A stretch of DNA of 28,760 nt, taken from positions 1 to 28,760 of IMG/VR virus record IMGVR_UViG_3300016265_000433; one strand, 5' to 3'. Of the stretch, positions 1-28,760 are shown one piece after another. Positions within the stretch are counted from its first letter, which is position 1. Every line of letters begins with the position of its first letter. The notes under the pieces are model-generated. The model was not told where the DNA came from. It was given only the letters and a program-made list of their open reading frames with translations, and did no database searches. This DNA is from a virus. Taxonomy: Duplodnaviria; Caudoviricetes. A program made the translations under genes and the position numbers.

Positions 1-1754
1 AGGTTCCCGAAATCGCTGGTGCCCTGCCCGGGAGCCGAGGCCGGCTTCGGGGGCTCGGGCGGCTTCATCGGTTCGAGGATGGACTGCGGGACGTAGCTGT
101 TTTCGGTGGAATACGGCAGAGCGCCACCGCCAGCATATCCGACCCCGCCGCCGTGGGCATAGCCAACCAGGCCACCCCTGGCAAACCAGGTGGTTGGGTT
201 CGTCCAAGAAAACGTAGAAGTGGACGTTTTCGGGGGCGCAGGCGGAAGAGGAGTGTTGAGCGGCTGCGTTTCGACCGGCGTCACCGGTGCGTTCGGAGCC
301 GTGGCATTCGACGCCTTCTGCTGGGTGACTTGCTGCTGCTCTTCGTTCCCGCCCGATGCGGGCTTAAGTTTGCTGTAAATATCCGCAGCCTGGTCGGCGT
401 AGGACATCAGGCCCTTGAGTTCGGGCTCGGGAAGCTTGGGGGCTTCGCCAGGCAGCATAAGCTGGTGCTGGGCCATAGCGCCGAGTTCCGCGCCATACGG
501 GCCGCCAAGGCCCGCATACGGCCCGCCAGCGGCATCGTTCATGCCAGCGCCGAAATCGCCGTACATGCCGCGATGGCTCTCGATGAGCGACGACATATCG
601 CCCACGGGATAGCCACCTACAGCATAACCGCCTCGAGCATAGCCAAGGCCCGCCATCTGGGGATGAACCGCGCCGCCTTCGGCAGCCAGGCCGCCCTGAT
701 AGTACCGACCACGATCCGCCGCATCGCGGGTGGCCGCGTCGTAATCCACGGTCTTCATGCCGCCAGCCTCGCCAACAGCCTCGGGATGGCGCTCCTCGAC
801 CTCTTGGGCAAGAAGGCCCATGCGGGTCGCCGGCTCGCCCTTGTAGCGGTACGAGTAGATGTTCTGGCCGTCGAACGTCTTACCCACGGGCCTGATGTCT
901 TCCTTCATCCTCTCGTCGGAGAAGAACGAATAAGGCTGGGTCGTCGTCGTGGTCGAGCCCGACGCCGTGCCGAGGCCCAGGGCAATATTCGACAGGAACT
1001 GGGCCACCTGGAACGGGTAGCCCTTTTCCTGAAGGAACTGTTGGAGCAGCGCAGTGTCGAGGGCCTGGCGGGTCTGCTGCTCAAGGGTGCCCGCGCCAAG
1101 CTGAGCCTGGAGGCCCTGGAGGGCGCTTTCCTGAGCCTGGGCACCAAGACCGGCATACTGCTGACCGGCCTGGAGCAGCGCCTGACGATCGGCGGCACGG
1201 GCCGCGTAATCGCGAGCCTGCTGGGTCTGGGCCGCCTCGAGGGCCTGGCCGTAGCCCTGGCGGTAAAGTTCAGCAATCTGCTGCTGGTTCGCCAGGTTCT
1301 GCTGGTAAGCCAAGTTGGCCGCACCAATACCCGACCGGTCGCCACCAAAAGCGCCCTGGGTGATCGCGTTGCCGTAAAGCTGGTTATATTGCTGCTGGTT
1401 TGCCTGTTCCTGCGCCCTCTGCGTCGTCTCGACGACGTTCTGGGTGTACGGGTTCAGGAACTGATTGATTTCGGTCTGGCCGATGCTGCCCAGGCCGACA
1501 GGGCCGCTCGAGCCGGTGATCATTTCGCCGGCACGGTTGTAGTACGGCTGGGCCATGCCCTGCGCGGCGTCGATGCCCCGCATGGCAGCCGTCTGGCGCT
1601 CGTTGATGGGGGCGACAAACTCGCCGGTATACCGCTCAAAAGGTCGCCGGGCGGCATCGCGGGCCATACGCCACGACTGATTGTAGTGCGCCAATACCGT
1701 TGGCGGGATCGTGACCTGTTGCGTAGTGGTTCCGGTTTTGCCGCCGCCGCCCAT
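1..1754 (-). CDS. Internal virion/ejection (DNA pilot-like) protein with an internal Peptidase_S74-type auto-cleavage domain; truncated at the left edge of the window
   Basis: Not in the ORF track because it has no stop inside the window. Manual translation from ATG at 1754 gives MGGGGKTGTTTQQVTIPP..., then a Q/A-rich helical region with FLNPY and GAFGGDR. Next is SDERMKEDIRPVG..NIYSYRYKG..MGLLAQEVEERHPEAV..KTVDY (741-920), then a G/P-rich region with YARGG, FARGG and YAHGG motifs. It lies directly downstream of the nozzle and GNAT genes, where podovirus ejection proteins are found. Confidence 0.8.
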   Translation of the reverse strand, partial: MGGGGKTGTTTQQVTIPPTVLAHYNQSWRMARDAARRPFERYTGEFVAPINERQTAAMRGIDAAQGMAQPYYNRAGEMITGSSGPVGLGSIGQTEINQFLNPYTQNVVETTQRAQEQANQQQYNQLYGNAITQGAFGGDRSGIGAANLAYQQNLANQQQIAELYRQGYGQALEAAQTQQARDYAARAADRQALLQAGQQYAGLGAQAQESALQGLQAQLGAGTLEQQTRQALDTALLQQFLQEKGYPFQVAQFLSNIALGLGTASGSTTTTTQPYSFFSDERMKEDIRPVGKTFDGQNIYSYRYKGEPATRMGLLAQEVEERHPEAVGEAGGMKTVDYDAATRDAADRGRYYQGGLAAEGGAVHPQMAGLGYARGGYAVGGYPVGDMSSLIESHRGMYGDFGAGMNDAAGGPYAGLGGPYGAELGAMAQHQLMLPGEAPKLPEPELKGLMSYADQAADIYSKLKPASGGNEEQQQVTQQKASNATAPNAPVTPVETQPLNTPLPPAPPKTSTSTFSWTNPTTWFARGGLVGYAHGGGVGYAGGGALPYSTENSYVPQSILEPMKPPEPPKPASAPGQGTSDFGN

Positions 1755-1765
1755 GTCTCAGCCTT

Positions 1766-2287
1766 TCACGATACCGGGGCCACTGCCGAGGCTTCCTCCG
1801 ACTTGGAGTTCCCGACACGCCCAGTCTTGGCCCCGTACAGCCAGAAAGCCCCAGAGGGAGGACCAAACTGGCGTTCGTACATCCGAACCTTCGCCTCGGT
1901 TCGCTGGTTGGACAGGACGCCAATCATCAGCGGAATACCCAAAGTGTCAGAGACTTGCTTTGAGAACTCGCACAGTTTTTTGGCCCGCCCGCCCTTAGCG
2001 GCTCGAAACTCAGGATGAATGAAAATCGCTTTTTCTTCAACAACCTCTTGGTCGGAGTACCAGAGACTGCCGATCCGAAGAAGAACCGCGCCCTCGGGCT
2101 TCCCGCCAGGTCGGCTGACTACACCGACGATGCCCTGCACTTGGTTAAGCGCCGCCCAAATATGCTCGAGAAGCTTATATTCGCTGGGCTCTAAAACGCC
2201 GTTTTCCTCAGTGGCAAGCATCGCCAGGTTCATAATCTCATGAACGTCATCGGGGACGCCAACGCGGACAACCAGATCATCAGCCAT
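1766..2287 (-). CDS. GNAT-fold acetyltransferase-like protein (positional analogue of T7 gp13)
   Basis: 173 aa. FIHPEFRAAKGGRAKKL resembles GNAT motif A. N-terminal 'VR...DDV..I' and C-terminal 'RMYER' are also GNAT-like. Confidence 0.7.
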   Translation of the reverse strand: MADDLVVRVGVPDDVHEIMNLAMLATEENGVLEPSEYKLLEHIWAALNQVQGIVGVVSRPGGKPEGAVLLRIGSLWYSDQEVVEEKAIFIHPEFRAAKGGRAKKLCEFSKQVSDTLGIPLMIGVLSNQRTEAKVRMYERQFGPPSGAFWLYGAKTGRVGNSKSEEASAVAPVS

Positions 2288-2290
2288 ATC

Positions 2291-2887
2291 TCAATCCTTC
2301 TTTGGTCCCGGTAGATTTTTCAGGGTTTTTACAGTCTTCGCCCTCTGCTGCTTGACGAACTCGTCCAGGATCCTGTGACCGTCTTCCATATTCCCGCCCC
2401 CGAGGGCCGCGACCTCTTCCGGGGAAATCACATATTCACCGCCGGCAGCCACGATGGGCACCGTTTCCGAATAGCCGCCTCGAGCCTTCCCCGGCGCTTC
2501 GGCCCCGTAGGGAAGGCCGCCGCTCACATAAGGAAGTTCCGCGCCAAGCTTGCTCTCGCCGTCCGGGGTGGCCGAGAAGATCGACTGGGCGACCTTGAAC
2601 CCGGCCATCGTATTGCCCTCGCCCATCGACGAGATGATGTCGGCAGGGATCACGTAAGAGCCCGAGGGAACGTGGATCGGCAGATGGTCGGTGCGCCCGG
2701 CAACCGAACTATGGATCGGGCCGACGTGGACCTTCTCCGAGGTGATTTCGCCGCCGTCAGCCTTCGCCACCTGACGGGCCGTCCGAAGGGCCGCCGCGAT
2801 CGCCTGGTCCTGCGGATGCCCGGCGTGGATCATCTCGCGGATGTTTGCCGAAATCGTCTTCTGGCTCGAGCCCTTTTTCAGCGGCAT
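2291..2887 (-). CDS. Conserved phage protein: short N-terminal helical module plus two tandem 'xxGG...G(S/E)YVI' modules
   Basis: 198 aa. N-terminus MPLKKGSSQKTISANIREMIHAGHPQDQAIAAAL. Modules are KADGG..DHLPIHVPSGSYVIPADIISSMG and KARGG.ETVPIVAAGGEYVISPEEVAALG. Confidence 0.75.
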   Translation of the reverse strand: MPLKKGSSQKTISANIREMIHAGHPQDQAIAAALRTARQVAKADGGEITSEKVHVGPIHSSVAGRTDHLPIHVPSGSYVIPADIISSMGEGNTMAGFKVAQSIFSATPDGESKLGAELPYVSGGLPYGAEAPGKARGGYSETVPIVAAGGEYVISPEEVAALGGGNMEDGHRILDEFVKQQRAKTVKTLKNLPGPKKD

Positions 2888-2894
2888 GGCTTCC

Positions 2895-3278
2895 TCACGA
2901 AATCGGCGTGTACCCGACGCAGGCCGTCATGTCCGCGTCAGTCTCGATGACGATGCCCCTACTATAGAACAGCGACACGTCCGAGTAATTTACGAAATTC
3001 GCCGCCGTCGCCTCGAGCGACGACCAGATCAGGTTTGCGGGGTCGATCGTGGCAACGCTCGCCGCGTCATAAATGAACACCTGGTTCGCGCCGCTAAACT
3101 CGGGGATCGACACCGAGTGGATCCTGCCCGTCCCGGTCGTGATCAGTTCCTGGGAAGACGCCGGGATGGTAGGGCTGATGGTCGAGGGGCCAGCGACGAT
3201 GCGGAAATACTGCACCAGGGCGTTGATGCCCTGGACACCGTTCTTCTGGGTTGTGAGGAAATCGTCCTGGCTCGCCAT
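2895..3278 (-). CDS. Small virion structural protein (hypothetical, beta-rich)
   Basis: True start is probably the ATG at 3278 (MASQDDFLTTQKNGV...), which overlaps the upstream TGA as TGATG; 127 aa. The track's 5' extension overlaps the nozzle gene. Confidence 0.7.
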   Translation of the reverse strand: MASQDDFLTTQKNGVQGINALVQYFRIVAGPSTISPTIPASSQELITTGTGRIHSVSIPEFSGANQVFIYDAASVATIDPANLIWSSLEATAANFVNYSDVSLFYSRGIVIETDADMTACVGYTPIS

Positions 3279-6220: not shown

Positions 6221-6223
6221 GAA

Positions 6224-13200: not shown

Positions 13201-14677
13201 TAGCGCCGACGCCGCCCGTGCCGTTGCTGTAGGTGACCGTCAGCGCCCCGGTCGAAGCCGCGACGACCGCCGTGTGATAGGTCGTGTTCGCGACCGTCGA
13301 GACGGTGTTATCGACATATTGCTTGGTCGAAAGCTGGAGGGCGGCAGTCGGATCCTGGGTAACCGTAACCGTCGTCAGGCCGGCCAGGGTCGCGGTCGAA
13401 GCGCCCAGGCTGATCGAGGTCGAGCCGATCGTGACACTGCTATTGGTCAGGCCCGCGTTCGGGATCGTCGCGACAGCCGTGAACGCGCCCGTGCCGTTGC
13501 CGACCAGATAGCCGGTAAGCGTCACCGCGCCAGTGCCGCCGCTGGCGACCGGCAGGGTGCCCGAAACGTGGGTCGTCAGGCCGATCTTGCCCCAGGCCGG
13601 AGCCACGCCCACGCCGCCCGAAATGAGCGCGTTGCCGGTCGCCACGTCATTAAGGCGGGCCAGACTGTTCGAGCCGGAGGCGTAAAGAAGATCGCCGGTC
13701 GTGTAAGAACCGAAGCCCGTGCCGCCCTGGGGGGCAGACAGAGGGTTCGTAAGACCCGACAGGCTGGTGATGTCGCTGTTCGCGCCCGAGGCCGCCGCGC
13801 CGAGGTTCGTCCGGGCAGTGCCCGCATCCGTAGCGCCCGTGCCGCCCTTATTGACCGCGATGGCCGTGCCGCTCCAGACGCCAGACGTAACGGTGCCGAC
13901 CGTCGAATTGCCCGAGACAGACAGGTTGGTGGCGCTAAGGGTCGTAAAATAGCCAAGAGACGGCGTCGAAGCGCCGATCATGCTGTTGTCGATAGTCGGG
14001 CCGGTAATGACGCCGCCCGTGATATTCACGTTGCTGGCATTCTGGGTCGCCATCGTGCCCAGACCGGTGACCTGGCCGGTCGAGATCTGGATCGAAACGT
14101 CGCTGGCCGCGCTAAGCTGACCGGACGCCAGGACCGTAAACTGAGGAACCGCAGAGGCCGAACCGTAGGTTCCAGCAACAACGCCGGTTGGCGTCAGGCC
14201 GCTCGGGCCGATGGCGGGATCCTGCCAGGTCGGGACCGTTCCCACGCCATTGGCCGTGAGGATCTGGCCGACAGTGCCGATCGACAGGGGCGACCAGCCC
14301 GCCGTGTCGCGATAGAGGATCTGGCCCTTCGTCGAGCCAATGACATCGAGAACCTGGCTGACCGTGGCGTCCGAGGGGCTTGCCGGGGAGCCGGTAACGT
14401 TAGCCTTTACGGTGCCGCCGGCCATCGACGCCAGGTAGGTGTTGGTCACCCCCGCCGTCTCGAGGCTGATCGTGCCCGTCGTCGTGATCGTGCCGCCAGA
14501 GATCGGCGAGGCCGTGGCGATCGAGGTGACGCCCGGGGCCGGGTACTGGCTCTGGGAATACTGGGCAATCTGGTCGGTCGTGATCCTTACCGACGTGCCG
14601 GCCTGTACGGCCTCGAGTTCCTCGTCGCCATTAAGCGAAATGCCGACCGGAAGATTAGGGATCTGCACATTCGCCAT
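10250..14677 (-). CDS. Long tail fibre protein
   Basis: 1475 aa, T/G/S-rich. Repeated GTL-x-V-x-x-GGTG units, collar-like GQRVLIKDQ..QNGIY..LTRATDFD, and C-terminal QDGTGGRNITWP domain. Confidence 0.85.
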   Translation of the reverse strand: MANVQIPNLPVGISLNGDEELEAVQAGTSVRITTDQIAQYSQSQYPAPGVTSIATASPISGGTITTTGTISLETAGVTNTYLASMAGGTVKANVTGSPASPSDATVSQVLDVIGSTKGQILYRDTAGWSPLSIGTVGQILTANGVGTVPTWQDPAIGPSGLTPTGVVAGTYGSASAVPQFTVLASGQLSAASDVSIQISTGQVTGLGTMATQNASNVNITGGVITGPTIDNSMIGASTPSLGYFTTLSATNLSVSGNSTVGTVTSGVWSGTAIAVNKGGTGATDAGTARTNLGAAASGANSDITSLSGLTNPLSAPQGGTGFGSYTTGDLLYASGSNSLARLNDVATGNALISGGVGVAPAWGKIGLTTHVSGTLPVASGGTGAVTLTGYLVGNGTGAFTAVATIPNAGLTNSSVTIGSTSISLGASTATLAGLTTVTVTQDPTAALQLSTKQYVDNTVSTVANTTYHTAVVAASTGALTVTYSNGTGGVGATLTNAGAQATFALDITNPTVGQRVLIKDQASAFQNGIYTVTDVGSGSTNWILTRATDFDETGTGPDYIQTGAAVYVSGGTTNGATSWVMNTTGTITVGSTSLVWAQISSSGNIQVNAPLSKAGNTISLGTVTVPFGGTGITTYTIGDILYASGASALSALSDVATGNVLLSGGVGVAPSYGKVGLTTHVSGTLPVANGGTGTATAFTAGSVVFAGASGTYSQDNANFFYDDTNNYLGLGTAAPNTRLVVVSPTQTSLPSGSLPAGTDLYVVGADAANTRITQDAFGTGNYPAYTGRSSRGTSASPTASQADDDLSQFTGRGYGATGFAGSSTGILAFHAAENFTDTDQGTYASILLAATGTTSAVERWRFGPAGQLGIGGATYGTSGYVLTSGGASAAPTWSLVSLSSSVTGTLPVGNGGTGLTSYTTGDLVYASGATTLASLPDVATGNALISGGVGIAPSWGKIGLTTHVSGTLAIGNGGTGLTTAPTAGQLLIGNGSSYVLSTLTQGTGITITNGSGSISIANAGVTSFSAGSTGLTPNTTTTGAVTLGGTLSVGNGGTGLTSYTVGDIVYASGSTTLASLADVATGNVLLSGGVGVAPAYGKVGLATHVSGVLPSANGGTGVNNGSSTITLGGNFTTSGAFATTLTVTGSTNVTLPTTGTLATLSGSEALSNKTITSSTINSSAIGGTTPASGAFTTLSASSTLAVTSTSTFGDAVTINAMTTGQVSLDVTGSATGATSVRSIRVNPTIASDVTSQYIGYVANPSTAAASFTLGSIVGFTASQGTIGAGSTVTNQYGFVASSTLTGATNNYGFYSNIASGANRWNFYSNGTAQNYFNGLTGFGVVPATGYQVLVSGVTKSSSFRNGINAIGNASGTLTIDCSLSDVHTTTLTGNITTVTISNAPANSDATTLVLFVTQDGTGGRNITWPSSVYCEGGNRATNLDPVSTASATTIYTLTTTNGGTVWYAVRLNAAAWANT
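11328..13705 (-). repeat. Four dispersed near-identical ~58-aa (~175-bp) repeats inside the tail fibre
   Basis: YTxGD(L/I)(L/V)YASG..L.DVATGN(A/V)L(I/L)SGGVG(V/I)AP.(W/Y)GK(I/V)GL.THVSG.L...GGTG at about 13530-13705, 12600-12775, 11750-11926 and 11328-11503. Confidence 0.9.
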
Positions 14678-17874: not shown

Positions 17875-18150
17875 TCAGCACTTCACGTCCCAACGCTTCA
17901 GAGCGAGGTTGATGCGGGAATTGGGGTCGTGCGCCGTCTTGGCCGATGTGAGTTTGTCCTTCATCCCGCACATCCTGGTGCGGAAGTTCTCACGGCGCTG
18001 CGCGGCCTCGGGGCTACGCTTCGCTTCTTCGGAAGTGACGGGACGCTTGATGTTATGGCCCTCGGCGCGGAGCGAGGCGCGGCCCTTTTCGTTCAGGCCA
18101 CCCGACTTGCTCTTTCCTTCGGAACGCTGCCAAGCCGGTGATTTCGCCAT
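17875..18150 (-). CDS. Small basic conserved phage protein (DUF6321-like)
   Basis: MAKSPAWQRSEGK..GGLNEKGRAS..RR.NF.TRM.GMK.KLTSAKTA.DPNSRIN.AL..W..C. Confidence 0.7.
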   Translation of the reverse strand: MAKSPAWQRSEGKSKSGGLNEKGRASLRAEGHNIKRPVTSEEAKRSPEAAQRRENFRTRMCGMKDKLTSAKTAHDPNSRINLALKRWDVKC

Positions 18151-18464: not shown

Positions 18465-18773
18465 TTAGTCGATCTGAACCGCGTGGCGGCCCTTGGCGGG
18501 CGTACCAGAGCGGGCCGACGAGAACGGGTTGGCCGTGGCGTTCGCACGACCGCCGCTCTTGCGGGCCTTACGACCGGCGTGAGCCTTGGCGAGGCCCTCG
18601 GGCATCTTGCCCACGGCCTTCTTCGCCACCTTGCCGCCGCGCTTACGCTCTTCGGCTTCCTCGTTCACCTTCGACTGATAGGTGTAACGCTGGTTCTTGG
18701 TGGCGAGATCCTCGTCATACGCACGGGTGCCGGAGGTTTCCCCGCCAGCGGCGCGATGCTTGCGACCCTTCAT
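18465..18773 (-). CDS. Small basic protein with three R-x-x-GG motifs
   Basis: 102 aa with RAAGG, RKRGG and RKSGG motifs. Purine-rich RBS (GGAGAAGGA). Confidence 0.75.
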   Translation of the reverse strand: MKGRKHRAAGGETSGTRAYDEDLATKNQRYTYQSKVNEEAEERKRGGKVAKKAVGKMPEGLAKAHAGRKARKSGGRANATANPFSSARSGTPAKGRHAVQID

Positions 18774-18784: not shown

Positions 18785-19243
18785 TTACTGCTGGACGTAG
18801 AGGACGGTCACAACGACGTAGCCGGTCGTCGGAGCCGTGCCCCCGCTCGGGGTGACAGTGACGACAACCGGGGCGGTCGTCGGCGCGGCGGTGCCCGTGG
18901 TGGTCACACCGTTCATGGCGGCAAGCTGGGCAGCCGTGAAGGTGATGGCCGCACGACCAGCCGTCTTGGCGTCGATCGAGCCGACATACTGAGTGCCAGC
19001 GGCAGCAGTGCCGATGGTCAGTGTGGCGGTCGTCGCGTTGTTCCAGGCGGTCAGAACGTCAATGTTGAAGCTGACGATCCGAGAGCCCGCCGGGATGTAC
19101 AGCGTCTTCGAGACAGCGGTAGCGCCGTTCTGGGTGAGAGCCGTAGCCTGGGTGAGAAGCGCGATGCCCTGGTTGGGACCGTCCGTCTCGCCCTGCTGAA
19201 GATCACCCGAAACAACCGGCCCGCTGAAGTGGGTAGCACCCAT
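18785..19243 (-). CDS. Putative capsid decoration / minor head protein
   Basis: 152 aa. MGATHFSGPV..IPAGSRI..DVLTAWN..LTIGT. Directly follows the capsid gene; AAGGAG RBS. Confidence 0.6.
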   Translation of the reverse strand: MGATHFSGPVVSGDLQQGETDGPNQGIALLTQATALTQNGATAVSKTLYIPAGSRIVSFNIDVLTAWNNATTATLTIGTAAAGTQYVGSIDAKTAGRAAITFTAAQLAAMNGVTTTGTAAPTTAPVVVTVTPSGGTAPTTGYVVVTVLYVQQ

Positions 19244-19267
19244 AATGTTGCTCCTTCTTCAGTGAAG

Positions 19268-19293
19268 TCCCCTCCCCAGTTAAGGGGAGGGGA
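19268..19293 (-). terminator. Strong hairpin after the major capsid gene (attenuator or mRNA stabiliser)
   Basis: Perfect 10-bp inverted repeat TCCCCTCCCC / GGGGAGGGGA with a 6-nt loop. No good U tract. Confidence 0.5.
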
Positions 19294-19303
19294 ACCAAGC
19301 CGA

Positions 19304-20218
19304 TTACGAGGTCGGGAACGACCCGTAGATCGAGCGCCAGTTGTAGTAACCGAACGAATAACGCTCGTAACCCTTGACAAGCAGATTATCTGTCACGAAG
19401 TCAACCTGCATATCCGTCTCGAACTTGACACGTTCCATGTAGGAAAGGCCGTCAATGTTCGTCAACAGGAACCACGCATACTGCGAGGTCAGGAAGTCGT
19501 TGACCATGTAACCTTCGGGAAGGCCACCGCTAGTCGAGAGCACAGCGTTAACGTCGTTATCCGCAGTACCCGGACGAAGTTCCGTCTTGGTGAGGCGGAT
19601 CGCGACCGGCTCAAGCTGCGGCGGAACCACAAGCTTACGAGCGCGGGCGAAGACCTTCAGGCCGGCCTGGTCCTTGAAGTTCGTGCGGACGGAGATCATG
19701 CCGTTCAGCAGCGTAGCTTCGTTCAGGTCCACGTCGGTCGTCGGACGGTTCGCCACCGTGCCGCCGTCGATCGGATGGGCCGTGGAGCAGAGCGCCACGC
19801 CGTCACCGCCGATGGAGGCATTGTAGGTCGTCGCCGTGTTGAGCACGTTCGCGCCGTAGATTTCCTTGGTCTGCTGGAAGCTCTCGATCAGACCGAGGTT
19901 CGACGGGTGGAACTGGGTCTTGTACAGGTTATCGTCGATCGCCTTGCGGGTGATCGCGTAACCCAGGGCAATCTCAGTGTGCTCCTGGTTGTACACGAAC
20001 CGCTCGCCAGCCGAGTTGTCGAACGCGGTCTGGCCGCCTTCGGTCTTAAGCTGGGCGAGGCCGAGGTAACGCATTTCAGCGGTACGCTCGAGCGCCATCT
20101 TCGAGTCGTGCTTCGTGAAGATCTTGTCGTACTGCGACGGGATCTGCTCGTACTTGCCCTCGACACCACGGAGGCCAGGAAGCAGCAGATCCTTAATGGC
20201 GGAAAGATTAACAGCCAT
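19304..20218 (-). CDS. Major capsid protein (HK97 fold, Mu gpT-like family)
   Basis: 304 aa. LLLPGL..LAQLKTEG..HTEIALGYAIT..DNLY..ANVLN..GGDGVALCSTAHP..KLVVPPQL..PGTADNDVNA..AWFLLT..ERYSFG. AAGGAG RBS. Confidence 0.88.
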   Translation of the reverse strand: MAVNLSAIKDLLLPGLRGVEGKYEQIPSQYDKIFTKHDSKMALERTAEMRYLGLAQLKTEGGQTAFDNSAGERFVYNQEHTEIALGYAITRKAIDDNLYKTQFHPSNLGLIESFQQTKEIYGANVLNTATTYNASIGGDGVALCSTAHPIDGGTVANRPTTDVDLNEATLLNGMISVRTNFKDQAGLKVFARARKLVVPPQLEPVAIRLTKTELRPGTADNDVNAVLSTSGGLPEGYMVNDFLTSQYAWFLLTNIDGLSYMERVKFETDMQVDFVTDNLLVKGYERYSFGYYNWRSIYGSFPTS

Positions 20219-20231
20219 TGTCCGTTACTCC

Positions 20232-20864
20232 TTAGCTGATGCCCGTGGGGCCAGCGCCGTTCGACCGGAAGATCTCGTTGTTGAAGCCAACGACGATCTG
20301 CGGGTAGTTGGTGCTGGGGTCCGTGCCGTTCGCGCCCGGAGGAGCGAGGACATAGTCCACGATGATGAAGGGGAAGGTGACAGTCGTGCCGACCGACGAG
20401 ATGTAAGCCGCCGACTGGCCCGTGTTGGTGTTGCCCGTACCAATGGTAAACTGGGCATACTGGCCGATCGGGAGGCTGTCGATCGTCGAAGCCGTGGCAC
20501 TCGCGTTGTAGAACGAAGCGCCCGTCGCCTGGACGAGGAACCGCGCATTCGGGTCGTCGATGACATAAGCCTCGACATCGCCCGTGGCGTCAGCGCCGGG
20601 CCAGTAACGGCTCCAGACGGTGCGCTTCTGGGAGGTGCTGAGATACTTGCAGCCAACGAAGATGCCCGCCAGCGTGGTCGTGCCGGCAGCGCCCTGGGTG
20701 ATGTAACCGTTGGCCGTGCCAACGACCGGCATCACCGGATCGCCGAAGAAGATCTTGGTGGTGTTCGACGCAGCGATACGACGAGCAGACTGGCTGAACG
20801 TCGGAGCGCCGCCGGCCCCACCGTAGAACTGAAGAAAGCCGAAGGGGGAATTGGTATTCGCCAC
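20232..20864 (-). CDS. Capsid cement / auxiliary head protein
   Basis: GTG start with AAGGAG RBS. ANTNSPFGF..IFFGDPV..GIFVGCKY..YWPG..AYVIDDPNARFLVQ. Directly upstream of the MCP gene. Confidence 0.65.
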   Translation of the reverse strand: MANTNSPFGFLQFYGGAGGAPTFSQSARRIAASNTTKIFFGDPVMPVVGTANGYITQGAAGTTTLAGIFVGCKYLSTSQKRTVWSRYWPGADATGDVEAYVIDDPNARFLVQATGASFYNASATASTIDSLPIGQYAQFTIGTGNTNTGQSAAYISSVGTTVTFPFIIVDYVLAPPGANGTDPSTNYPQIVVGFNNEIFRSNGAGPTGIS

Positions 20865-20894
20865 GACGGGACTCCTTTTCAGGAAGCGCCATCA

Positions 20895-20951
20895 TCGCAC
20901 ACCGGGGCGACTAGATCGCTGGATCGGTTTACTCCTCACGCCGGGGAGGAG
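20895..20951 (-). promoter_or_regulatory. Two tandem stem-loops with near-identical 8-nt loops in the capsid operon leader
   Basis: CUCCUC-CCCGGCGU-GAGGAG (20932-20951) and UCGC-CCCGGUGU-GCGA (20895-20910). Confidence 0.55.
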
Positions 20952-20958
20952 ATGATCC

Positions 20959-20986
20959 ACCTTATACCCATTTTTCAAACGTGCAA
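20959..20986 (-). promoter_or_regulatory. Sigma70-like promoter for the capsid operon
   Basis: TTGCAC-N16-TAAGGT in an AT-rich patch just downstream of a terminator hairpin. Confidence 0.5.
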
Positions 20987-20996
20987 ATGGTTTTCT

Positions 20997-21033
20997 AAAT
21001 AACCAGGGGCCGCAAGATTGCCCCTGCGGCCCC
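20997..21033 (-). terminator. Intrinsic terminator-like hairpin
   Basis: GGGGCCGCAGGG-GCAA-UCUUGCGGCCCC: 12-bp stem with two G-U pairs and a GNRA loop, followed by UGGUUAUUU. Confidence 0.65.
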
Positions 21034-21057
21034 CATTACGGTCGATAAACAGGTCGC

Positions 21058-21672
21058 TTACTTGTCGTCAGGGATCGGCATGGGCTCATAGCCCTTGTTG
21101 ATCTTCGGTCGAACCTGGGAATGCTCACGACCAAACTGGCCCTCGGGGGCCGACGCAAGCTGCTGTTCGCGCACCCGGACACGCTCCCGGGCCTCGCGGA
21201 GGTCACGACGCCGGAACTCTTCGGTGATCATGGCCGGGCGCTGCATCAGGATCATGCCCTTACGCTCGATGTGCGCGTAATTGCCCTTCGGCATCATCTC
21301 GGGATGCCTGGAGGCCGGCACCTCTTCCCAACCCGTGCGGCGAAGGTGCGTCATGTAGGTGTGGTCGATCGCGCCCAGGACCGAATGACGCTTCCATTCG
21401 TAGGTCCAGCCGTCCGGGATCGCCGAGGGGTCGATCCAGAACTCGTCATTGCCGGCATCGGCATCACCGATGTGGCCCATGATCTCCCTGGCGCGGCGCT
21501 CAGCGGCGGCTCGAGGGTCTTCATCCCGCAGCGGATCCCGCATCGGACGACGCTCGGGTCCGTTACTAAGTTCCAGCGGTACTTCGTCACGGATTTCGGG
21601 GGCGGCCTCGCGGTTCTTGGGCGGACGGCCTCGGCGGCGCGGGGCGGCGGTTTCGTTATCGCTCATATCCAA
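21058..21672 (-). CDS. Conserved head-module protein of unknown function
   Basis: IPDGWTYEWKRHSVLG..RRTGWEEVPASRHPEM..IERKGMILM.RP. Lies between the scaffold and capsid genes; AGGAG RBS. Confidence 0.75.
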   Translation of the reverse strand: MDMSDNETAAPRRRGRPPKNREAAPEIRDEVPLELSNGPERRPMRDPLRDEDPRAAAERRAREIMGHIGDADAGNDEFWIDPSAIPDGWTYEWKRHSVLGAIDHTYMTHLRRTGWEEVPASRHPEMMPKGNYAHIERKGMILMQRPAMITEEFRRRDLREARERVRVREQQLASAPEGQFGREHSQVRPKINKGYEPMPIPDDK

Positions 21673-21677
21673 TCTCC

Positions 21678-22562
21678 TTAGTGAGTGATCTTGCCCTCTT
21701 TCATGAGCGCCAGGCGCTCACGGGCGTATTCTTCGGGGCTCATGCCCATCATCTGGGCCATTTCGCGCTGCTCAGCCGTCAGGCGGACGACCTTGGAGCC
21801 GTTCGCGCCCGAGTTACGGCTAACCGGGGCCGCCGGAGGGGCAGCGCGGCGCTGTGCCGGGGCCGCAGCCGCCGACATCGGGCTTTCCGCAGCCTCGACG
21901 GTCGATTTCCGCACACCGAGGATGCCTTCGACATAGTCGAAGTAGTCCGCAGTGTCGGGCTGGATGCCATCAGCCACCGCCAGGTTGTGCGCGGCGACCA
22001 TTTTCTGGTTGAGGCGGGGGTTCGTGACGTACTGGGGGTTCCGGCGCACCCAATCAGCCGACTGGGGCGACAGTTGCCGGGCAAAAGCCTCGACCGGATC
22101 CACCTGGGGCGGAGCCGGGGGAGCCTGGCGGGGGCGCTGTTCCATCGCCTGCCGGCCATTTTCAAGCTGGAGAAGCTTCGCCGCGTTAAGCGACATGGCT
22201 TCCTGGATCTCGGCAGCCCGATCGTAATCGTTCATCGCCATCGCATTGCGATATTCGGCTTTGAGGATGTTCGTCTCGGTCCTGACCGTGTTGATCGCGC
22301 TCTCGACCAGTCGAAGGTTGGTGTCCTCGACCTCGTTCGACGCCTGGTGGGCCTGCTGCTGGGCCTCGAAGAAGCGCCGCTCGGCATCCATACGGGCCGC
22401 CCGCTCTTCCTCGTACTTGCGCTTGAACTCGGCCAGGCCGTCTTCGGCGCTGACCTCGCGCCTCGGCTCGCCGGCATCGTCCTCTACGACGATCTCCGGC
22501 TTGGTTTCGGCAGCCTCGGGGGCCTCCTCGACCTCGATCTCAATCTTCTCTTCATCAGCCAT
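21678..22562 (-). CDS. Capsid scaffolding protein
   Basis: Acidic N-terminus, coiled coil, DWVRRNP, and C-terminal VRLTAEQREMAQMMGMSPEEYAR capsid-binding-type motif. Confidence 0.75.
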   Translation of the reverse strand: MADEEKIEIEVEEAPEAAETKPEIVVEDDAGEPRREVSAEDGLAEFKRKYEEERAARMDAERRFFEAQQQAHQASNEVEDTNLRLVESAINTVRTETNILKAEYRNAMAMNDYDRAAEIQEAMSLNAAKLLQLENGRQAMEQRPRQAPPAPPQVDPVEAFARQLSPQSADWVRRNPQYVTNPRLNQKMVAAHNLAVADGIQPDTADYFDYVEGILGVRKSTVEAAESPMSAAAAPAQRRAAPPAAPVSRNSGANGSKVVRLTAEQREMAQMMGMSPEEYARERLALMKEGKITH

Positions 22563-22573
22563 ATCTTATCTCC

Positions 22574-22966
22574 TCACCAAACCCGGTCGGGATGATCGAC
22601 CTTGCCCTTGATCGAGGTGTCCTCGAGCATCCGGCACAGGACGTTGTTGACCGTGACCGACCAGCCGTCGCTGGCGCGGTGAACAATCCAGTCCCCCACG
22701 TCAACATTGACGTTCTTGAACCACTGATCCTTCTCGTCCACGAACGCCGAGGGGCCTTTCTTCAGCACCAGGCCGACCTTGGACTGGTAGCGATCCTCGT
22801 CGGTCGTTTTGTCGGTCAGATAAAGGCCGGATTTCGTGCGCTGGGGGCGGATGTACACGGCAACCAGCACCTGGGTGTTGAAGACATCCACGTTTGAGAT
22901 GTCCCCAATCTCCTCGAGGATCTTCTTCCTGGGGTCTTCTTCGTGTTCCATGATCATAAACGGCAT
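22574..22966 (-). CDS. groES: Co-chaperonin GroES (Cpn10)
   Basis: QVLV..RTKSGLYL mobile loop, GLVLKKGP, VDVGDWI, RMLEDTSIKGKV. ATG at 22966 follows AAGGTG; an alternative GTG start lies at 22975. Confidence 0.88.
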   Translation of the reverse strand: MPFMIMEHEEDPRKKILEEIGDISNVDVFNTQVLVAVYIRPQRTKSGLYLTDKTTDEDRYQSKVGLVLKKGPSAFVDEKDQWFKNVNVDVGDWIVHRASDGWSVTVNNVLCRMLEDTSIKGKVDHPDRVW

Positions 22967-22990
22967 AACATTCACCTTGTATGTATAGAG

Positions 22991-23194: not shown

Positions 23195-23224
23195 ATCAAT
23201 CTCGTCATCTAATAAGGGTGAAGG

Positions 23225-23261
23225 GGGAAACGACCGGGGGAGGCATACCCGATCGTTTCCC
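23225..23261 (-). promoter_or_regulatory. Intergenic 14-bp hairpin
   Basis: Minus strand GGGAAACGAUCGGG-9 nt-CCCGGUCGUUUCCC with one G-U pair, followed by CCUUC. Confidence 0.5.
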
Positions 23262-23287
23262 GCCTTCGTGCGTCGGCGAGGTGGGGG

Positions 23288-24709
23288 TTACCGACGCTTG
23301 CTCTTCTGGATCTCGGTCTTCTCGAGGCGGCCCTCACCGGATCCAGCGCCCGCATCCATGTCCTTGTAGCTGGAATAGACCTTGCCGCCCTTCTTGTAGG
23401 CCGGCGCGCTCTTGCCGGTCTTGGCAATGTCCGTCTTCTGCAGGCGACCCTCGGCACCACCGGAGCCCGCCTCCATGTCCTTGTAGGACTTGGCGACCTT
23501 GGTGATGCGCCCACCGGACTTGCGCGCCATCGGCGGCATCCCGCCCGGCATCCAGGGTGCGGGAGGATCGACCCAGGCAGGCATCGGCATGCCGCCCATG
23601 GGAGGCGTCGACATGCCCGGAGGAGGCACAGGAACTGGCAGGCCGCCCGGAGGCTTCGGCATCGGCATGTCGCCCATCGGAGCGCCGCCCATGGCCGGCG
23701 CGGGCTTCGTTTGGATCATGATGTTGACGTTCGTGCCGCCCTTCTTGGCGCGCCCGCCAGCCTTGCGCGCCATGCGCTCAGGCTGCGCCTTGCCGCCCTT
23801 TTTCATGCCGGGGATGACCGGGTCGCCCTTGAACTTCAGGTATCCCCCGCCGGCGTACTGTTGCGCCTTGCCGCGCTTGGCGTTCGAGAGGTTTCTCTGG
23901 TGCTCTTCCGTGGAACGCTGTTCCTTCTCGGACGCGCCTTTCTTGCCGTCGGGCATTTCCATCGGGCCGTAGTTGACCTTGCCGCCGTCCTTGCGCGCGG
24001 CGCGCCCGCCGGCCTTGCGACCATGCGCGCCCTCTTCCTGCGCCTTCTGGCGCTGGCGCTGCATCTCCTGCCGCATGCGCTCCTGATCGGCAGCGGAAGG
24101 TTGCTCGCTGGCGTCCTTCTGGGTTGAGAATCCGCTTTGGCCACCATTGTTCTTACCCGTGCGGCCCTTGAGAAGACCGTGGATGGCCGCCGCTTCCTTG
24201 CCACCAATCTTCTGACGCGAAGAGGAGATGGCCTTGTCGACCGCTTCCTTGTCATAATCGGGGCGGTAGACGTTCTCGGGCTTCTTGGTCGCCGTACCAG
24301 ACGACGCGCCGGGTGCCATATCGGCAGGGCCGCCGTCGGCCTTCTTGACGACACCACCCTTCTTCAAAGCGCCGACGTGCTTCACGCCCTCGCGCTCTTC
24401 GTTGGCCGCCTTCGCGTCGCGATTGACCTTGGCAAGCGCGTATTCCTTCGCCTCTGCCTTTTCGCTCTCGACCTTGCCGCCCTTCTTACGCGGCTTGCGA
24501 TCGGCGCGCGGCGCGCAGCTCTCGCCCATGACCTTGCCGCCGGTCTTATAGGCGCGGCGCGAGATCGGACGCATGCCCGTCTTCACGTCAGCGTTGATCG
24601 GCTCTGAAGGCGACCAGTCGCTGCTGTCCACCTTTTCGTCCTTCTGCGAGGACATGGCTTTCGCCTTGTCCCTCATCTTGGCTCGCAGGGTCTTTGCCAT
24701 TTCAGACAT
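23288..24709 (-). CDS. Basic, low-complexity protein with about 13 K/A-x-GG motifs, a Pro/Met-rich tract and a duplicated C-terminal motif
   Basis: 473 aa, GGAG RBS. Motifs include YKTGG, RKKGG, LKKGG, KADGG, RKAGG (twice), RKDGG, MKKGG, RKSGG and YKKGG. SYKDMxAGxGxxEGRLxKTxI occurs twice. Confidence 0.8.
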   Translation of the reverse strand: MSEMAKTLRAKMRDKAKAMSSQKDEKVDSSDWSPSEPINADVKTGMRPISRRAYKTGGKVMGESCAPRADRKPRKKGGKVESEKAEAKEYALAKVNRDAKAANEEREGVKHVGALKKGGVVKKADGGPADMAPGASSGTATKKPENVYRPDYDKEAVDKAISSSRQKIGGKEAAAIHGLLKGRTGKNNGGQSGFSTQKDASEQPSAADQERMRQEMQRQRQKAQEEGAHGRKAGGRAARKDGGKVNYGPMEMPDGKKGASEKEQRSTEEHQRNLSNAKRGKAQQYAGGGYLKFKGDPVIPGMKKGGKAQPERMARKAGGRAKKGGTNVNIMIQTKPAPAMGGAPMGDMPMPKPPGGLPVPVPPPGMSTPPMGGMPMPAWVDPPAPWMPGGMPPMARKSGGRITKVAKSYKDMEAGSGGAEGRLQKTDIAKTGKSAPAYKKGGKVYSSYKDMDAGAGSGEGRLEKTEIQKSKRR

Positions 24710-24728
24710 GCTTTACACTCCGGAGTTA

Positions 24729-27700
24729 TCAGGGCGTCCCCTGAGCCGCTTTTTTGAATTGCCCCCGCGGCGTAGAGCAAACGTCTTTTGCCAGCATCAT
24801 AGTGTGATGGGCTACTTGACCGCCACGCTTGAGACCATACTTGGCTTGGCGCTCAAGCCCGAGCATGATGTTTTCAATCATGCGATCATCAATAGGTTGC
24901 ACTTGCTTCTGCTCGGTGAAGAGTTTGCGAGCAGTGTCTCTGCCCCCTTTTTCCAGAGAGTACGGATGGACAAGTTGCCCCCCGGCGGCGAGCTTGGCTA
25001 ACACGCGCTCCATGGCGGTTGGCATACCGTATTGGGTTTGAACCAAAGGAAGATCACCAACATATCGACCAAGGGTTTCGGTCGGGTATGTTTGATGCAA
25101 GAAACGACGATCTGGAGAGATCGCTCCTTCAGTATCGAACCGCACAATTCGGTGCCCAATCGTGTTAGTCGGACTAGATAAAAGAGCCGGGTCTGTTACG
25201 GCGACGCGCGTGACGCCCACCTCTGGAAACCCCTGTTTGCGCCAACCGGTCGCTTCCATTGCTTTGATAAATTCACTGCGCTGAGTACCGGTCATTTTCT
25301 TTGCAAGATCCAAAACTACTTCTTGGCTTTTCAGTTTAGCAAGACCGGGCCAAATTTCTTGCATGCGTTCGGCGGTCTTCGGTCTATCGGCAACTTTTAT
25401 CGTAAAGTCGCCCCTGCGAACCATTTCGTCAAACTCCTTCATTGTTTTTTTGGTTATTTTGGCGGGAGGAATTTGCGACATCACAGCATTGAACATGCCA
25501 ACAGAGCTGTCGACCGCAGTTGGCCCCATCGGCGCGTAGACACCATAGACAGGCCCTTTCTTTGCCGCGTCGGCGATAATGTTATTGAAGCTGGTTGTGT
25601 GACCCGGGGCATTGGCCCAAACGAGCCCGGGGTTAGGCTCCAGCATATATTTTGGACCGGCATGCAATGGGACATCCCACGCAAGACGTTTTTCATTGTT
25701 GATGTCGCGAAGCAAGCCAAGATTAAGGCGATCGCCGCCCACATTAATCATGGTGCCACCTTTGGCTTCTTTTCCAAAATCTTCCCACGACATTGGTCTG
25801 GGCGTCACGGGCGTCACGCCGGGAAGCGGTGCGACGTCTGGGCGCACATCTTGAACACCCATCGTCGGTTTTCTACCGAAGAAACTACCGGGGGCATCAA
25901 ACTCTACGCCTTGCGGAATGCGATAAGACGAAGCTATTTCCAGTGCGCGGCGCACACTCTCCGGGTCTTCGCTGAACGGGCTCACAACACGATTTAATTC
26001 GGGACGAGCGTTTAGAATGGCGTTTTCAGGCGTACCGCTAATTACTCGCTTGACACCTGCTGGCACACGGAGCTTTGGCGCGGCTTCCGCTGATCCAATC
26101 GGATTTAGTTGTGACAAAAACGACAGCGCGCGATCCACAATACCGCGTCCCTCTTCTACTGCGCCACCATCGTCGAAGCCGCTGCGCATAGCACGCACCA
26201 CATCGTCGTGTGTAGTGACATCATTGCCAGCTTTGTCCCAAACAGCGTGGTGGGCGAGATGCTGGTAGAAAGGCTTGTACTGTCCCGGCGTCTCTAACGC
26301 CATCGCAGCCTGACGAGCGGCAAGCCGGTCCACGCCTTCTTGCCCCCCGACACCCCCTGCTCGCCTGATGAAAGGTGTTGCAGCTTTGGAGGGCTCACCG
26401 GTGTGCAGAATGATCTGGCGCGCATCGAGCGTTGGTAAGTCGCCGCGCCCGAGAAGAGAAGCGATGAAACCACTCTTCGACGGACCAATACCGCGAACAT
26501 CGCGCGTAAAGTCGCGCCACTCGCTCGGATCTGAAGCCATCTGTGCGCCGCGCGCGACAAGGTCCGACGCCGCCTTCTCGCGACCCGGAAGGTTTTGCGC
26601 CGCCCATTTCATGGCGTCAGGGATGTCTGTCTCATGCTTACCAAACGGAGCCATAATACGGACCGCCTGCGCAACCGTATCGGCGGAAATGTCTCCGCGC
26701 GCCGCCTCGCCAATAAACTTGCGCCCCATCGGCGTCATCAGCCACTCGGCCCACGCGCCCTCAGGACGAATCTTCTCATAGCCAGTGACCGGCAGGCCTG
26801 TTGCGCGCACTTTTTTTGGATCGACAGCCTGTCTCTGGATGCTCGCCCGCGTCGTAGTGTAAGCCCGAATTAGGTCTTCCGCCGACAAACCTTCTTTTGC
26901 GGCTTTTTCCGAAACTTCGCGCATGTAATCGCCAAAATTCTGCACATGCGGCGGAATTTCTGTAAGATTCAATTCTCGTTGAACAGTGGGCAAATCTCGC
27001 CACTTCCAATCTTCAATCTTGGTAGTCTTCGGATCAGTATATTCGCGAACCAAGTTTAATGCGCGCTTAATCACACCGCCCTTGTCATAACCCTCGATTC
27101 CTCCTCCTTCGGCCTTCTCTGGTGGCAACTCCGTCGCCCACTCAGGCAACAGGCCCGTCTTCTGTTCAGCGTAAATCGTATCGCCGCCGAGCGCCGTACG
27201 ATTGCGCTCGCCGTATGGCCCAAAATTGACCCATGAGTTTTGTCCGCGCGTCTCTGTGGCCGCTGCCGGGCGCGCTTCGGGCGAATACATGCGCGAGTGA
27301 AGCTGATACGCACGTTCTTCGCCGGGTGCCCGGAAGAACGGATTGCCCGGACCGAAGTGACCATAAAGATCATGCACAACACGGAAGGCATCGTTGACCA
27401 ATGCGTCCGGTTTGTCGCCAATGCGCCCCGCGCCTTTCAGCAGGGGATTGCTCGCGAGAAGGCCGCCGCTCGAGCCAAATCCTTGCTCCGTCGGAAAGAC
27501 GTAGAGCCTGCCGCGGTTCATGATGTCTTCGTAGCCAAGTGCCGGGCTTGCGGCGTAGGGGTCAGCTTGCCCGGGCTTCAGGAAACGAATGTCGAGCCCC
27601 GCCTCTTTCGCCGCGCGATACTGCGCCAGCGTCTCGTCAGCGAGAGCCTGATACGCACGACGCACGATCGGGTTCGCCGGGTCATGCTTCATCTCTTCGA

Positions 27701-28760
27701 ATGCGCCAGCAACCTGACGCGCGAAATCTTCATTCAACGGGACAAAGCGTTCGATGGCGTGCTCGTTTGGCCGCCCAACGCTGCGCATATAGTTGCTCGC
27801 GGCAGTCTCAAGCTCCGGGACTGGCCGCGCCTCAACCTTGCCAATTCCGGGAATGTTGACCGTTGCGGGAGCGCCGGGGATCGGCTCATAGCCGGATCCG
27901 GGCCGCTTCAATCGACCAATGTCCTCGGCCAGTTGCAGGGCGCGTTTGATGACGCTGCCGCCGGGCCCATAGCCCTCGACTTCGCCTCCCTCGGCGTAGC
28001 GTCGTTGGATATCGATGATGTTGGGATCGAAGACGACGTAGTTATGCGTCTGTTCCGGGCTCATTCTCAAACGAGAGACTTGGTCAAGATACTTGATGCC
28101 GGGTATACCTGCTTCAAGCATTGTTTCCGTCTCGCGCCTGTGAGACCCGGGGCCACGAAAACTCAGATACTTTGGCAATTCGCTCCCAAGCTCTGTCTCA
28201 GGTGCGTTTCGAAACAGGTCTTGAACCGTTTTATTCTGAGAAGCGAGTGGTTTGTCCCAATCAAGTAATTGTTCTGGCCGAGCATTGATGTTGACTTCGT
28301 ACATGTGGCCGCGGCTTACCGGCTCAACACGAAAATCTTCGCGGCGAAGATTACGCACAATGTTGAGGACATCAACCAACTGTCGCGAGCGCTCAGGGTC
28401 ATTGTTTGTCTGGTTTAGAATTGTTTCCAGCATACGCTCACGATTTGAGCGCATTGCATCAAACCCGTAGAAAGGTGCCTCGCGATCAATACCAAGCAGC
28501 GTCTGCCCGGGCATCGAGTTGATATCTACCGGCTCACCGCGAAACATCGGCGTCATCACTGGCTGTCCAGAAAGATGATCACGGTATTCGCGAGCGACAG
28601 CTTCATTTCCTGCAAAATAAAGACCGCGACCGTAAGATTGATTACCTTGCCCCGTCCCAATCTTGGATGCGTCGAATTTTTCAAACTTATGCGGAGATCC
28701 GTGATAGGCACGAATGAAATCCAAAGCTTTTTTTATCGCACCGCCCTTGTCATAACCCTC
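24729..28760 (-). CDS. Large polyvalent multi-domain protein, 5'-truncated: ART-like, zincin-like, HhH-GPD glycosylase-like and unknown domains joined by xxGG linkers
   Basis: The frame is open to the window edge (EGYDKGGAIKKALDFIRAYHGS...), so the track's TTG start at 28724 is not the real start. Motifs: YHGS..GRGLYFA..NYVVFD; FRVVHDLYGH..GEERAY..H; VRGIGPSKSGF..DLPTLD. Confidence 0.8.
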   Translation of the reverse strand, partial: EGYDKGGAIKKALDFIRAYHGSPHKFEKFDASKIGTGQGNQSYGRGLYFAGNEAVAREYRDHLSGQPVMTPMFRGEPVDINSMPGQTLLGIDREAPFYGFDAMRSNRERMLETILNQTNNDPERSRQLVDVLNIVRNLRREDFRVEPVSRGHMYEVNINARPEQLLDWDKPLASQNKTVQDLFRNAPETELGSELPKYLSFRGPGSHRRETETMLEAGIPGIKYLDQVSRLRMSPEQTHNYVVFDPNIIDIQRRYAEGGEVEGYGPGGSVIKRALQLAEDIGRLKRPGSGYEPIPGAPATVNIPGIGKVEARPVPELETAASNYMRSVGRPNEHAIERFVPLNEDFARQVAGAFEEMKHDPANPIVRRAYQALADETLAQYRAAKEAGLDIRFLKPGQADPYAASPALGYEDIMNRGRLYVFPTEQGFGSSGGLLASNPLLKGAGRIGDKPDALVNDAFRVVHDLYGHFGPGNPFFRAPGEERAYQLHSRMYSPEARPAAATETRGQNSWVNFGPYGERNRTALGGDTIYAEQKTGLLPEWATELPPEKAEGGGIEGYDKGGVIKRALNLVREYTDPKTTKIEDWKWRDLPTVQRELNLTEIPPHVQNFGDYMREVSEKAAKEGLSAEDLIRAYTTTRASIQRQAVDPKKVRATGLPVTGYEKIRPEGAWAEWLMTPMGRKFIGEAARGDISADTVAQAVRIMAPFGKHETDIPDAMKWAAQNLPGREKAASDLVARGAQMASDPSEWRDFTRDVRGIGPSKSGFIASLLGRGDLPTLDARQIILHTGEPSKAATPFIRRAGGVGGQEGVDRLAARQAAMALETPGQYKPFYQHLAHHAVWDKAGNDVTTHDDVVRAMRSGFDDGGAVEEGRGIVDRALSFLSQLNPIGSAEAAPKLRVPAGVKRVISGTPENAILNARPELNRVVSPFSEDPESVRRALEIASSYRIPQGVEFDAPGSFFGRKPTMGVQDVRPDVAPLPGVTPVTPRPMSWEDFGKEAKGGTMINVGGDRLNLGLLRDINNEKRLAWDVPLHAGPKYMLEPNPGLVWANAPGHTTSFNNIIADAAKKGPVYGVYAPMGPTAVDSSVGMFNAVMSQIPPAKITKKTMKEFDEMVRRGDFTIKVADRPKTAERMQEIWPGLAKLKSQEVVLDLAKKMTGTQRSEFIKAMEATGWRKQGFPEVGVTRVAVTDPALLSSPTNTIGHRIVRFDTEGAISPDRRFLHQTYPTETLGRYVGDLPLVQTQYGMPTAMERVLAKLAAGGQLVHPYSLEKGGRDTARKLFTEQKQVQPIDDRMIENIMLGLERQAKYGLKRGGQVAHHTMMLAKDVCSTPRGQFKKAAQGTP
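27074..28760. repeat. Identical 22-bp direct repeat CACCGCCCTTGTCATAACCCTC at two inter-domain linkers
   Basis: Copies at 27074-27095 and 28739-28760; the second reaches the window edge and may be longer. Both encode EGYDKGG. Confidence 0.9.

Follow-up and report, generated by a model that had tools for sequence, protein, structure and literature searches.

Maturation cleavage of internal virion proteins is known. The proteases of phages T4 (gp21) and phiKZ (gp175) cut after Glu, process the major capsid protein (MCP) and are encoded beside it. According to Linares et al. (2023, PMC10038345), the tape-measure protein pb2 of phage T5 matures by a cut after R1127 into pb2* and the 92-residue pb2C. 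Lambda gpH is converted into gpH* and gpHC, a fragment of ~14 kDa, and the paper states that site and catalyst are not known (PMC12617516). For phage polyvalent proteins, processing by zincin MPTase or assemblin domains was proposed by Iyer et al. (2017, PMC5512222), the accessible part of which names no glycine motif (0 occurrences of 'glycine' and 0 of 'linker'). Here we describe a di-glycine motif, with the strict pattern [YFKRML][AK]xGG, in proteins encoded by the virus record IMGVR_UViG_3300016265_000433, which was analysed over its whole length of 28,760 nucleotides and is called the window below. The window is a linear record with an estimated completeness of ~50% and 31 analysed genes, all on the minus strand. 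Based on MCP identity plus the presence of adaptors, nozzle, fibres, a GroES-like gene and an ejection gene, it is assigned as the virion module of an HTVC023P-type podophage. Its MCP is 91% identical to that of MW202675 and 41% identical over the full length to the capsid protein of Pelagibacter phage HTVC023P, with which the window has the GroES, scaffold, nozzle, 204-aa, 210-aa, MCP and adaptor families in common.

The motif was scored against 2000 composition-preserving shuffles. There are 25 strict copies in 5 of the 31 open reading frames (ORFs) and none in the other 26, for which the summed expectation is about 2. The carriers are an ejection-type protein (3..1754; 5 copies vs 0.39 expected), a 198-aa protein encoded by a core gene (2291..2887; 2 vs 0.12), a 102-aa basic protein (18465..18773; 3 vs 0.14), a 473-aa basic low-complexity protein (23288..24709; 11 vs 0.72) and a polyvalent cargo protein (24729..28760; 4 vs 0.58), with p values from 0.0005 to 0.0065. 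The motif-free ORFs include the MCP, the scaffold, the adaptors and the most glycine-rich ORF (277 aa, 24% Gly). A low-complexity artefact was ruled out by the composition shuffles and by the glycine-rich fibres, which stand at or below expectation. All four Gly codons are used at the motif, and the commonest codon pair accounts for 34% of 844 copies in 258 genes. Because the Gly codons vary freely, the signal lies at the protein level, and a DNA-level repeat was ruled out.

The individual copies are placed as follows. The ejection-type protein (584 aa, running off the contig; PHROG 4287 'DNA ejection protein', E 2e-17) is built in the order of ejection domain, S74 self-cleaving chaperone domain (aa 279-327, 774-920; PF13884, E 1e-9) and motif clusters, the one just after the S74 domain comprising YYQGG, AAEGG, YARGG and YAVGG (612..704) and the other FARGG, YAHGG and YAGGG (123..185). 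Many of its complete homologues are 1050-1870 aa long. The 198-aa protein carries KADGG (2750-2764) and KARGG (2474-2488), and the 102-aa protein, with 24% K+R, has three evenly spaced copies (18741-18755, 18633-18647, 18549-18563). The 473-aa protein, with 20% K+R, is likely an internal core protein; in relatives its gene lies between the portal-adjacent cargo and the GroES/scaffold genes. A first-pass annotation, made from the sequence alone, had listed the two clusters, KADGG, KARGG and the three copies in the 102-aa protein correctly. Its copy numbers of 7, 13 and 7 for the ejection, 473-aa and polyvalent proteins are reached only with close variants, the strict counts being 5, 11 and 4.

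The pattern was defined on the window itself, and therefore relatives provided an out-of-sample test, which it passed. We used 80 loci collected via the MCP and 80 via the 198-aa family, which are related and not dereplicated. At the MCP loci, every homologue of three carriers contained the motif: all 51 of the 102-aa protein (154 copies, with 8 expected), all 47 of the 473-aa protein (354, with 32 expected) and all 10 of the polyvalent protein (38, with 4 expected). It was present in 0/80 MCPs, 0/67 scaffolds and 0/40 adaptors. At the 198-aa loci, it was found in 77 of 80 homologues of the 198-aa protein (135 vs 12) and in 51 of 62 ejection homologues, many of them truncated (192 vs 46). Of the 22 second ejection proteins, 19 carry it (21 vs 9), and none of the 76 GNAT homologues does; nozzles had fewer copies than expected (9 vs 15) and one adaptor family had slightly more (5 vs 2). 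Six near-complete relatives, two of them covered as far as base 60,000, have 173 strict copies among 452 called ORFs; 151 of these copies are in just 38 ORFs, each from one of six carrier classes. The recurrence of the motif in the five carriers is real and far above chance. Of the checks proposed in the first-pass annotation, those for enrichment over background, restriction to the carriers and conservation in homologues came out in its favour, and the absence from MCP, scaffold and adaptors that it had noted holds in the window. HTVC023P has fewer and more degenerate copies in its matching proteins. Separately, its gp30, gp32, gp51, gp52, gp82 and gp83 (loci L083/L084) are small Lys-rich proteins in which variants of the motif lie close to the C-terminus; gp82 starts with a basic leader that runs up to and includes the motif, and the motif is also the last element of gp83.

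Then, what could such a motif be for? In T5 pb2 (1219 aa), R1127 opens R-A-E-G-G, one of just two strict motifs in the protein. The intact masses reported for whole T5 tails without trypsin are 121,683 and 9702 (Arnaud et al., PMC11937500). We computed masses of 9701.7 for pb2 residues 1128-1219 and 121,679.6 for residues 2-1127, and of 9387.4 for the small fragment if the cut fell after GG. Since 9702 fits 9701.7 and not 9387.4, the T5 cut is placed before A-x-G-G, three residues ahead of GG. Adenovirus protease, pS273R of African swine fever virus and C39 peptidases cut after GG, with the hydrophobic residue one position nearer to it. These analogies of the first-pass annotation are therefore in the wrong register, as T5 cuts between motif positions 1 and 2; the likeness is limited to a di-glycine signal and, for adenovirus, to substrates that include basic core proteins. 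T5 pb2 is like the carriers here in having a strict motif, which in this ejected protein is followed by a short G-E-containing module. It differs in that it has one site in a siphophage tail protein, compared with 25 in the window, spread over five podophage proteins of the head or ejection type, and pb2C has no direct sequence link to the 198-aa module.

The residues around the motif extend the pattern to a wider consensus, R-x-G-[FYRKML]-[AK]-x-G-G-x-[VIA]. Before A/K, ejection proteins prefer F (x8) and Y (x4) and portal-adjacent cargo prefers Y (x8), the latter also with V (x8) at position +6, and R four residues upstream is preferred x3-7 in all six carrier groups. The preferences lie on both sides of the T5-type bond.

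Two further systems can be compared with the window. Lambda gpH has two strict motifs (aa 733 and 778) flanking a G-E-F-V module in its cleaved C-terminal region. This arrangement is like that of the 198-aa protein, in which an N-terminal helical hairpin is followed by two repeats of the motif plus a G-S/E-Y-V module, and the profile match between gpH and the 198-aa repeat is weak (E 0.0054, probability 6.7%). In crAss001, two pieces of the cargo protein C1, gp45, were resolved, one bound to the portal wing (residues 425-552) and one inside the tail barrel (214-245); the accessible part of the paper does not mention cleavage (Bayfield et al. 2023, PMC10172136). The portal-wing segment begins with the A of R-N-W-N|A-F-G-G, in the T5 register, and stops 7 residues before the next motif, which starts at 559; the barrel segment lies between A-x-G-G sites at 207 and 261. 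Like the carriers here, gp45 (PF25725) is an ejection-type cargo with A-x-G-G sites whose portal-bound domain starts at one of them. It differs in that, besides this silence on cleavage, PF25725 matches neither the window (0 matches at E <= 10) nor four members of the 198-aa family (P0001, P0004, P0010 and P0046).

In the polyvalent protein (1343+ aa, with an open 5' end; ART-PolyVal match at E 1e-5, below the cut-off), four swappable modules are joined at motifs at aa 3, 255/264, 549/558, 862 and 1310. In MW202675 the polyvalent modules are spread over three separate proteins, with ART-PolyVal and InPase over the cut-off. Among 14 BLAST high-scoring segment pairs of the polyvalent protein, all 14 ends and 9 starts fall within 30 aa of a motif, bearing in mind that common tags themselves lengthen alignments and that four starts are the truncated protein end. 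As in known phage polyvalent proteins, this is multi-module head cargo with ART-PolyVal and InPase domains; it differs with regard to their proposed MPTase cutter, since MPTase-PolyVal had no match in the ORFs of the window or in the 78 scanned ORFs of MW202675. As a side observation, module 2 (aa 455-545, 27130-27400) matches phrog_3170 and contains H-D-x-x-G-H followed by G-E-E-R-A, which is also found in MW202675 and in only some relatives. We take this pair to resemble the HExxGH and E-E-x-R-A-E zinc motifs of dipeptidyl peptidase III (M49).

A second element accompanies the motif. It is a predicted helix of the type V-x-R-A-L-x-I-A, often following the motif near the cargo C-terminus, and was spotted when the termini of second ejection proteins and of 31 portal-adjacent cargo ORFs were inspected; similar helices also open several cargo proteins. 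In portal-adjacent cargo, 12 of 29 distinct proteins have it (14 copies, 0.2 expected), as do 16 of 21 second ejection proteins (16 copies, 0.7 expected); polyvalent homologues have 5 copies against 0.3 expected. In the polyvalent protein of the window, VIKRALQLA, a helix judging from its residue pattern, follows a motif at 27927..27950, and further copies are near 27048-27071, 26115-26138 and 25932-25955, all four having been found with a looser pattern.

We infer the following sequence of events. The motif stands where modules join and at the ends of proteins that are probably packaged in the head. Cargo and ejection proteins would be loaded into the prohead via short terminal V-x-R-A-L-x-I-A-type helices and would then be cut between the bulky residue and A/K, three residues ahead of GG. 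This trimming would free separate ejection and effector modules, each starting with A/K-x-G-G, which could then pass the portal. The two basic proteins, of 473 and 102 aa, would be broken down into peptides of 8-110 residues, in the manner of expendable internal core proteins. The cutting enzyme would be a host enzyme or an unrecognised phage protein. Such a scheme recalls T4 gp21, phiKZ gp175 and the T4 capsid-targeting sequence, where one short signal sits on internal head proteins, the tag is removed after loading and core proteins are degraded. It differs from the T4/phiKZ type in that MCP and scaffold here lack the motif and no prohead protease family is matched. Because T5 cuts pb2 at the same motif, we read the motif as a maturation cut site that frees modules from their loading tags, with a probability of about 0.55.

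The first-pass annotation had left the choice between a common cleavage site and a docking tag; both are kept here, with cleavage leading on account of the T5 cut at a strict motif. The main rival is that the motif is an uncut docking hairpin, whose repeats bind the portal wing, the scaffold or the inner capsid face, with or without the helix. The A-F-G-G of gp45 lies within an ordered portal-bound segment, motif copies are found at the termini of proteins and as tandem pairs, and the variants in the small basic proteins of HTVC023P are near C-termini, where cutting removes little. We nevertheless regard docking as unlikely, given that the cut in pb2, a tail-tube protein rather than head cargo, falls precisely on the motif, and that a separate helical tag is available as an address. 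Should the motif have no reader at all, it could be a mere flexible joint that doubles as microhomology for module swapping. The exchange of modules at motifs agrees with this, as do both motif regions of the 198-aa protein, which are of low confidence in its AlphaFold2 model; synonymous Gly codons nevertheless vary freely, and the motif stays at constant sites in the 102-aa and 198-aa proteins, which are not swapped, with preferred side chains in four flanking positions, so that we consider a mere joint improbable. The preferences themselves differ between carriers, since basic proteins favour R-K (R 36-86%, K 75-80%) and ejection and cargo proteins F/Y-A (A 79-91%). Two motifs may accordingly have been conflated, R-K-x-G-G binding or condensing DNA in basic proteins and F/Y-A-x-G-G having another role in cargo. 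This we think very improbable, for both flavours are found within the 473-aa protein (YKTGG, KADGG, YAGGG and MKKGG), the upstream R and downstream V/A/I preferences are common to both, and the second ejection protein uses R-A/K.

Several observations weigh against the cut-site reading. The one mapped phage cut at the motif is that of T5 pb2, from a phage outside the HTVC023P-type group. The T5 site itself is contested by Ayala et al. (PMC11937520), who cite an earlier placement at V1148 +/- 1 and note that R1127 is also a trypsin site. In lambda gpH, a cut at the motif at aa 733 would free about 12.5 kDa, vs the ~14 kDa reported. Position 424 of gp45 is N, which the strict pattern does not allow, and the edge of a resolved segment is not necessarily a cleavage point. 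Motif pairs with a spacing of 8-9 residues are as compatible with multivalent binding as with cutting. In the six near-complete relatives, 22 of the 173 strict copies are outside carriers. The first-pass annotation had placed the polyvalent sites only at domain boundaries or the C-terminus, which is true of the seven sites it counted and fails for the strict LAAGG at aa 1257 (24978-24992), within the last module. As to the helix, its pattern was defined on the same sequences as were scored, and it is at or near zero in the remaining families, the 473-, 102- and 198-aa ones included.

The search for the enzyme also counts on this side. No Pfam match to C5, C48 or C39 was obtained at E <= 0.01 in the 31 ORFs of the window, which is about half of the genome. 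A search for these families beyond the window, as the first-pass annotation had proposed for the rest of the genome, was carried out in one relative, the complete MW202675, and found none in 78 of its 81 ORFs, the scan excluding the MCP, the 198-aa homologue and one gene over a fetch boundary. These scans, together with one of 20 relatives for SprT-like genes, yielded no family protease common to the carriers' genomes. The only peptidase-type Pfam match in the window is the S74 self-cleaving domain, and those in MW202675 are S74, M15 and SprT-like; the earlier statement that no head-maturation protease is visible in the window was borne out, prohead protease families being unmatched. A SprT-like peptidase as general reader was rejected, as it is present in 4 of 20 relatives and in only 2 of 15 near-complete virus records. 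The 204-aa core gene (21058..21672) was tested as a candidate protease without support, since no Ser, Cys or His is kept across the HTVC023P and Pag-Yong1 homologues and there is hence no conserved nucleophile. Its AlphaFold2 model (predicted local distance difference test, pLDDT, of 74) had no PDB match at E <= 0.001, a best VIA Z of 4.1 and, in BFVD, matches to uncharacterised phage proteins only, and these searches with the predicted structure leave room for a new fold.

Whether gp45 is processed was also approached by re-analysing 13 peak lists from matrix-assisted laser desorption/ionization (MALDI) in the accessible part of Shkoporov et al. (PMC6235969), with the bands taken as running from high to low mass. 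By cryo-electron microscopy, gp45 (91 kDa) is present in 12 copies, and it was outside the four best matches of every band. The five bands of 70-100 kDa gave 3, 3, 5, 0 and 1 gp45 peaks vs null means of 3.6, 3.3, 3.1, 1.1 and 1.0, compared with 12 peaks vs 3.5 expected for the portal (93 kDa). The lack of a full-length gp45 signal fits processing only weakly, because the motif-free gp46 was also unseen and no semi-tryptic gp45 peptide was obtained. One semi-tryptic candidate, 2117.05, was 0.12 off, vs band errors of at most 0.08, and was discarded; four other coincidences sit in bands of at least 150 kDa. In the two bands of top mass (>300 kDa class), gp44 and gp34 were matched together, suggesting a complex resistant to sodium dodecyl sulfate or a cross-link.

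The 198-aa family has 3084 homologues, and G45, G137 and G138 are invariant among 58 aligned sequences. The first-pass annotation had called the carriers unrelated, which may not hold at the motif for the 198-aa protein, as its motif heads a duplicated small module that is weakly and transitively linked to tape-measure C-termini. The family matches phrog_11341 at E 1e-4 to 4e-3, and the F116 member of phrog_11341 matches tape-measure protein PHROGs at E 6e-6 and 4e-5; the direct match of the family to tape-measure PHROGs is weak (E 0.03), and profile comparison of the family with gp45 and with pb2C gave no match. The AlphaFold2 model of the protein has a pLDDT of 70, with both motif regions below 50. 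No PDB structure matched it at E <= 0.001, and since the VIA rows were confined to the N-terminal hairpin, the repeat module was barely probed. When the PDB was searched by sequence with the 198-aa profile, a portal profile and the MCP, nothing significant was obtained, and a mixed module profile matched, apart from the sequences that went into it, a single further tape-measure protein (8zdo, E 6e-4). Among named ESM Atlas clusters, crAss001 cargo C1 is the closest to the module, with a feature score of 0.85, which is a lead only. In F116, gp57/gp58 (18835-22897 of locus L086) have the duplicated module of the 198-aa protein joined to the N-terminus of an ejection-type protein and followed by F-A-D-G-G, and gp57 looks frameshifted in the record; BcepIL02 and F116 have few motifs beyond the gp58-60 block of F116.

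The remaining genes of the window make up its setting. A close match to the MCP (19304..20218, motif-free and of HTVC023P type by its identities) is present in about 1700 stored stretches. A putative scaffold, so called from its position and coiled-coil-like sequence (21678..22562), and a GroES-like co-chaperonin core gene (22574..22975; PF00166 over the cut-off) are also without the motif. The portal is outside the window, and in relatives it is directly upstream of the polyvalent gene. A GNAT-like core gene (1766..2287; homologues match PF13508 at E 0.003, below the cut-off) separates the 198-aa gene from the ejection gene in 76 of 80 loci, and one might speculate that its product acetylates new N-termini or motif lysines. 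Most ejection homologues contain the S-D-x-R-x-K pattern of S74; some lack it (e.g. L148, L150 and L161), with motifs starting near the same position. In one subgroup of ejection genes (L112, L100, L115, L118, L120, L125 and L153), a propeptide-like leader of 30 residues ending in L-A-F/Y-G-G precedes the usual G-G-K start. A DUF6321 basic protein is encoded by a core gene at 17875-18150, and its homologue HTVC023P gp43 has an N-terminal extension with an F-K-R-G-G motif. The product of the core gene at 14677-15396 has two N-terminal CxxC pairs and a C-terminal domain matching E1_FCCH below the cut-off. Core virion genes without an assigned role include the 204-, 210-, 239-, 91- and 67-aa genes.

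In literature searches, with most subscription papers outside their coverage, no published description of the motif, its register or its pairing with the helix was found. A broader proposal, which we put forward tentatively and hold to be possible rather than probable, is that one prime-side code, bulky|A/K-x-G-G, is common to siphophage tape measures (T5 and lambda), crAss-like cargo and HTVC023P-type cargo, is read by an unrecognised, possibly host protease, and is paired in these podophages with a helical loading address. If true, the lambda gpH site would be fixed at F733|A734 and the pieces of crAss001 gp45 on both sides of the portal would be explained. The cut-site reading predicts exact termini in cultured crAss001, HTVC023P and lambda, and would make the cleavage site and enzyme of lambda gpH, an old question, testable. 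It would also provide a sequence rule with which to find and subdivide the proteins injected by a large group of aquatic phages. If the motif is the cut site and the helix the address, the two together would be a compact way of loading proteins into phage heads.

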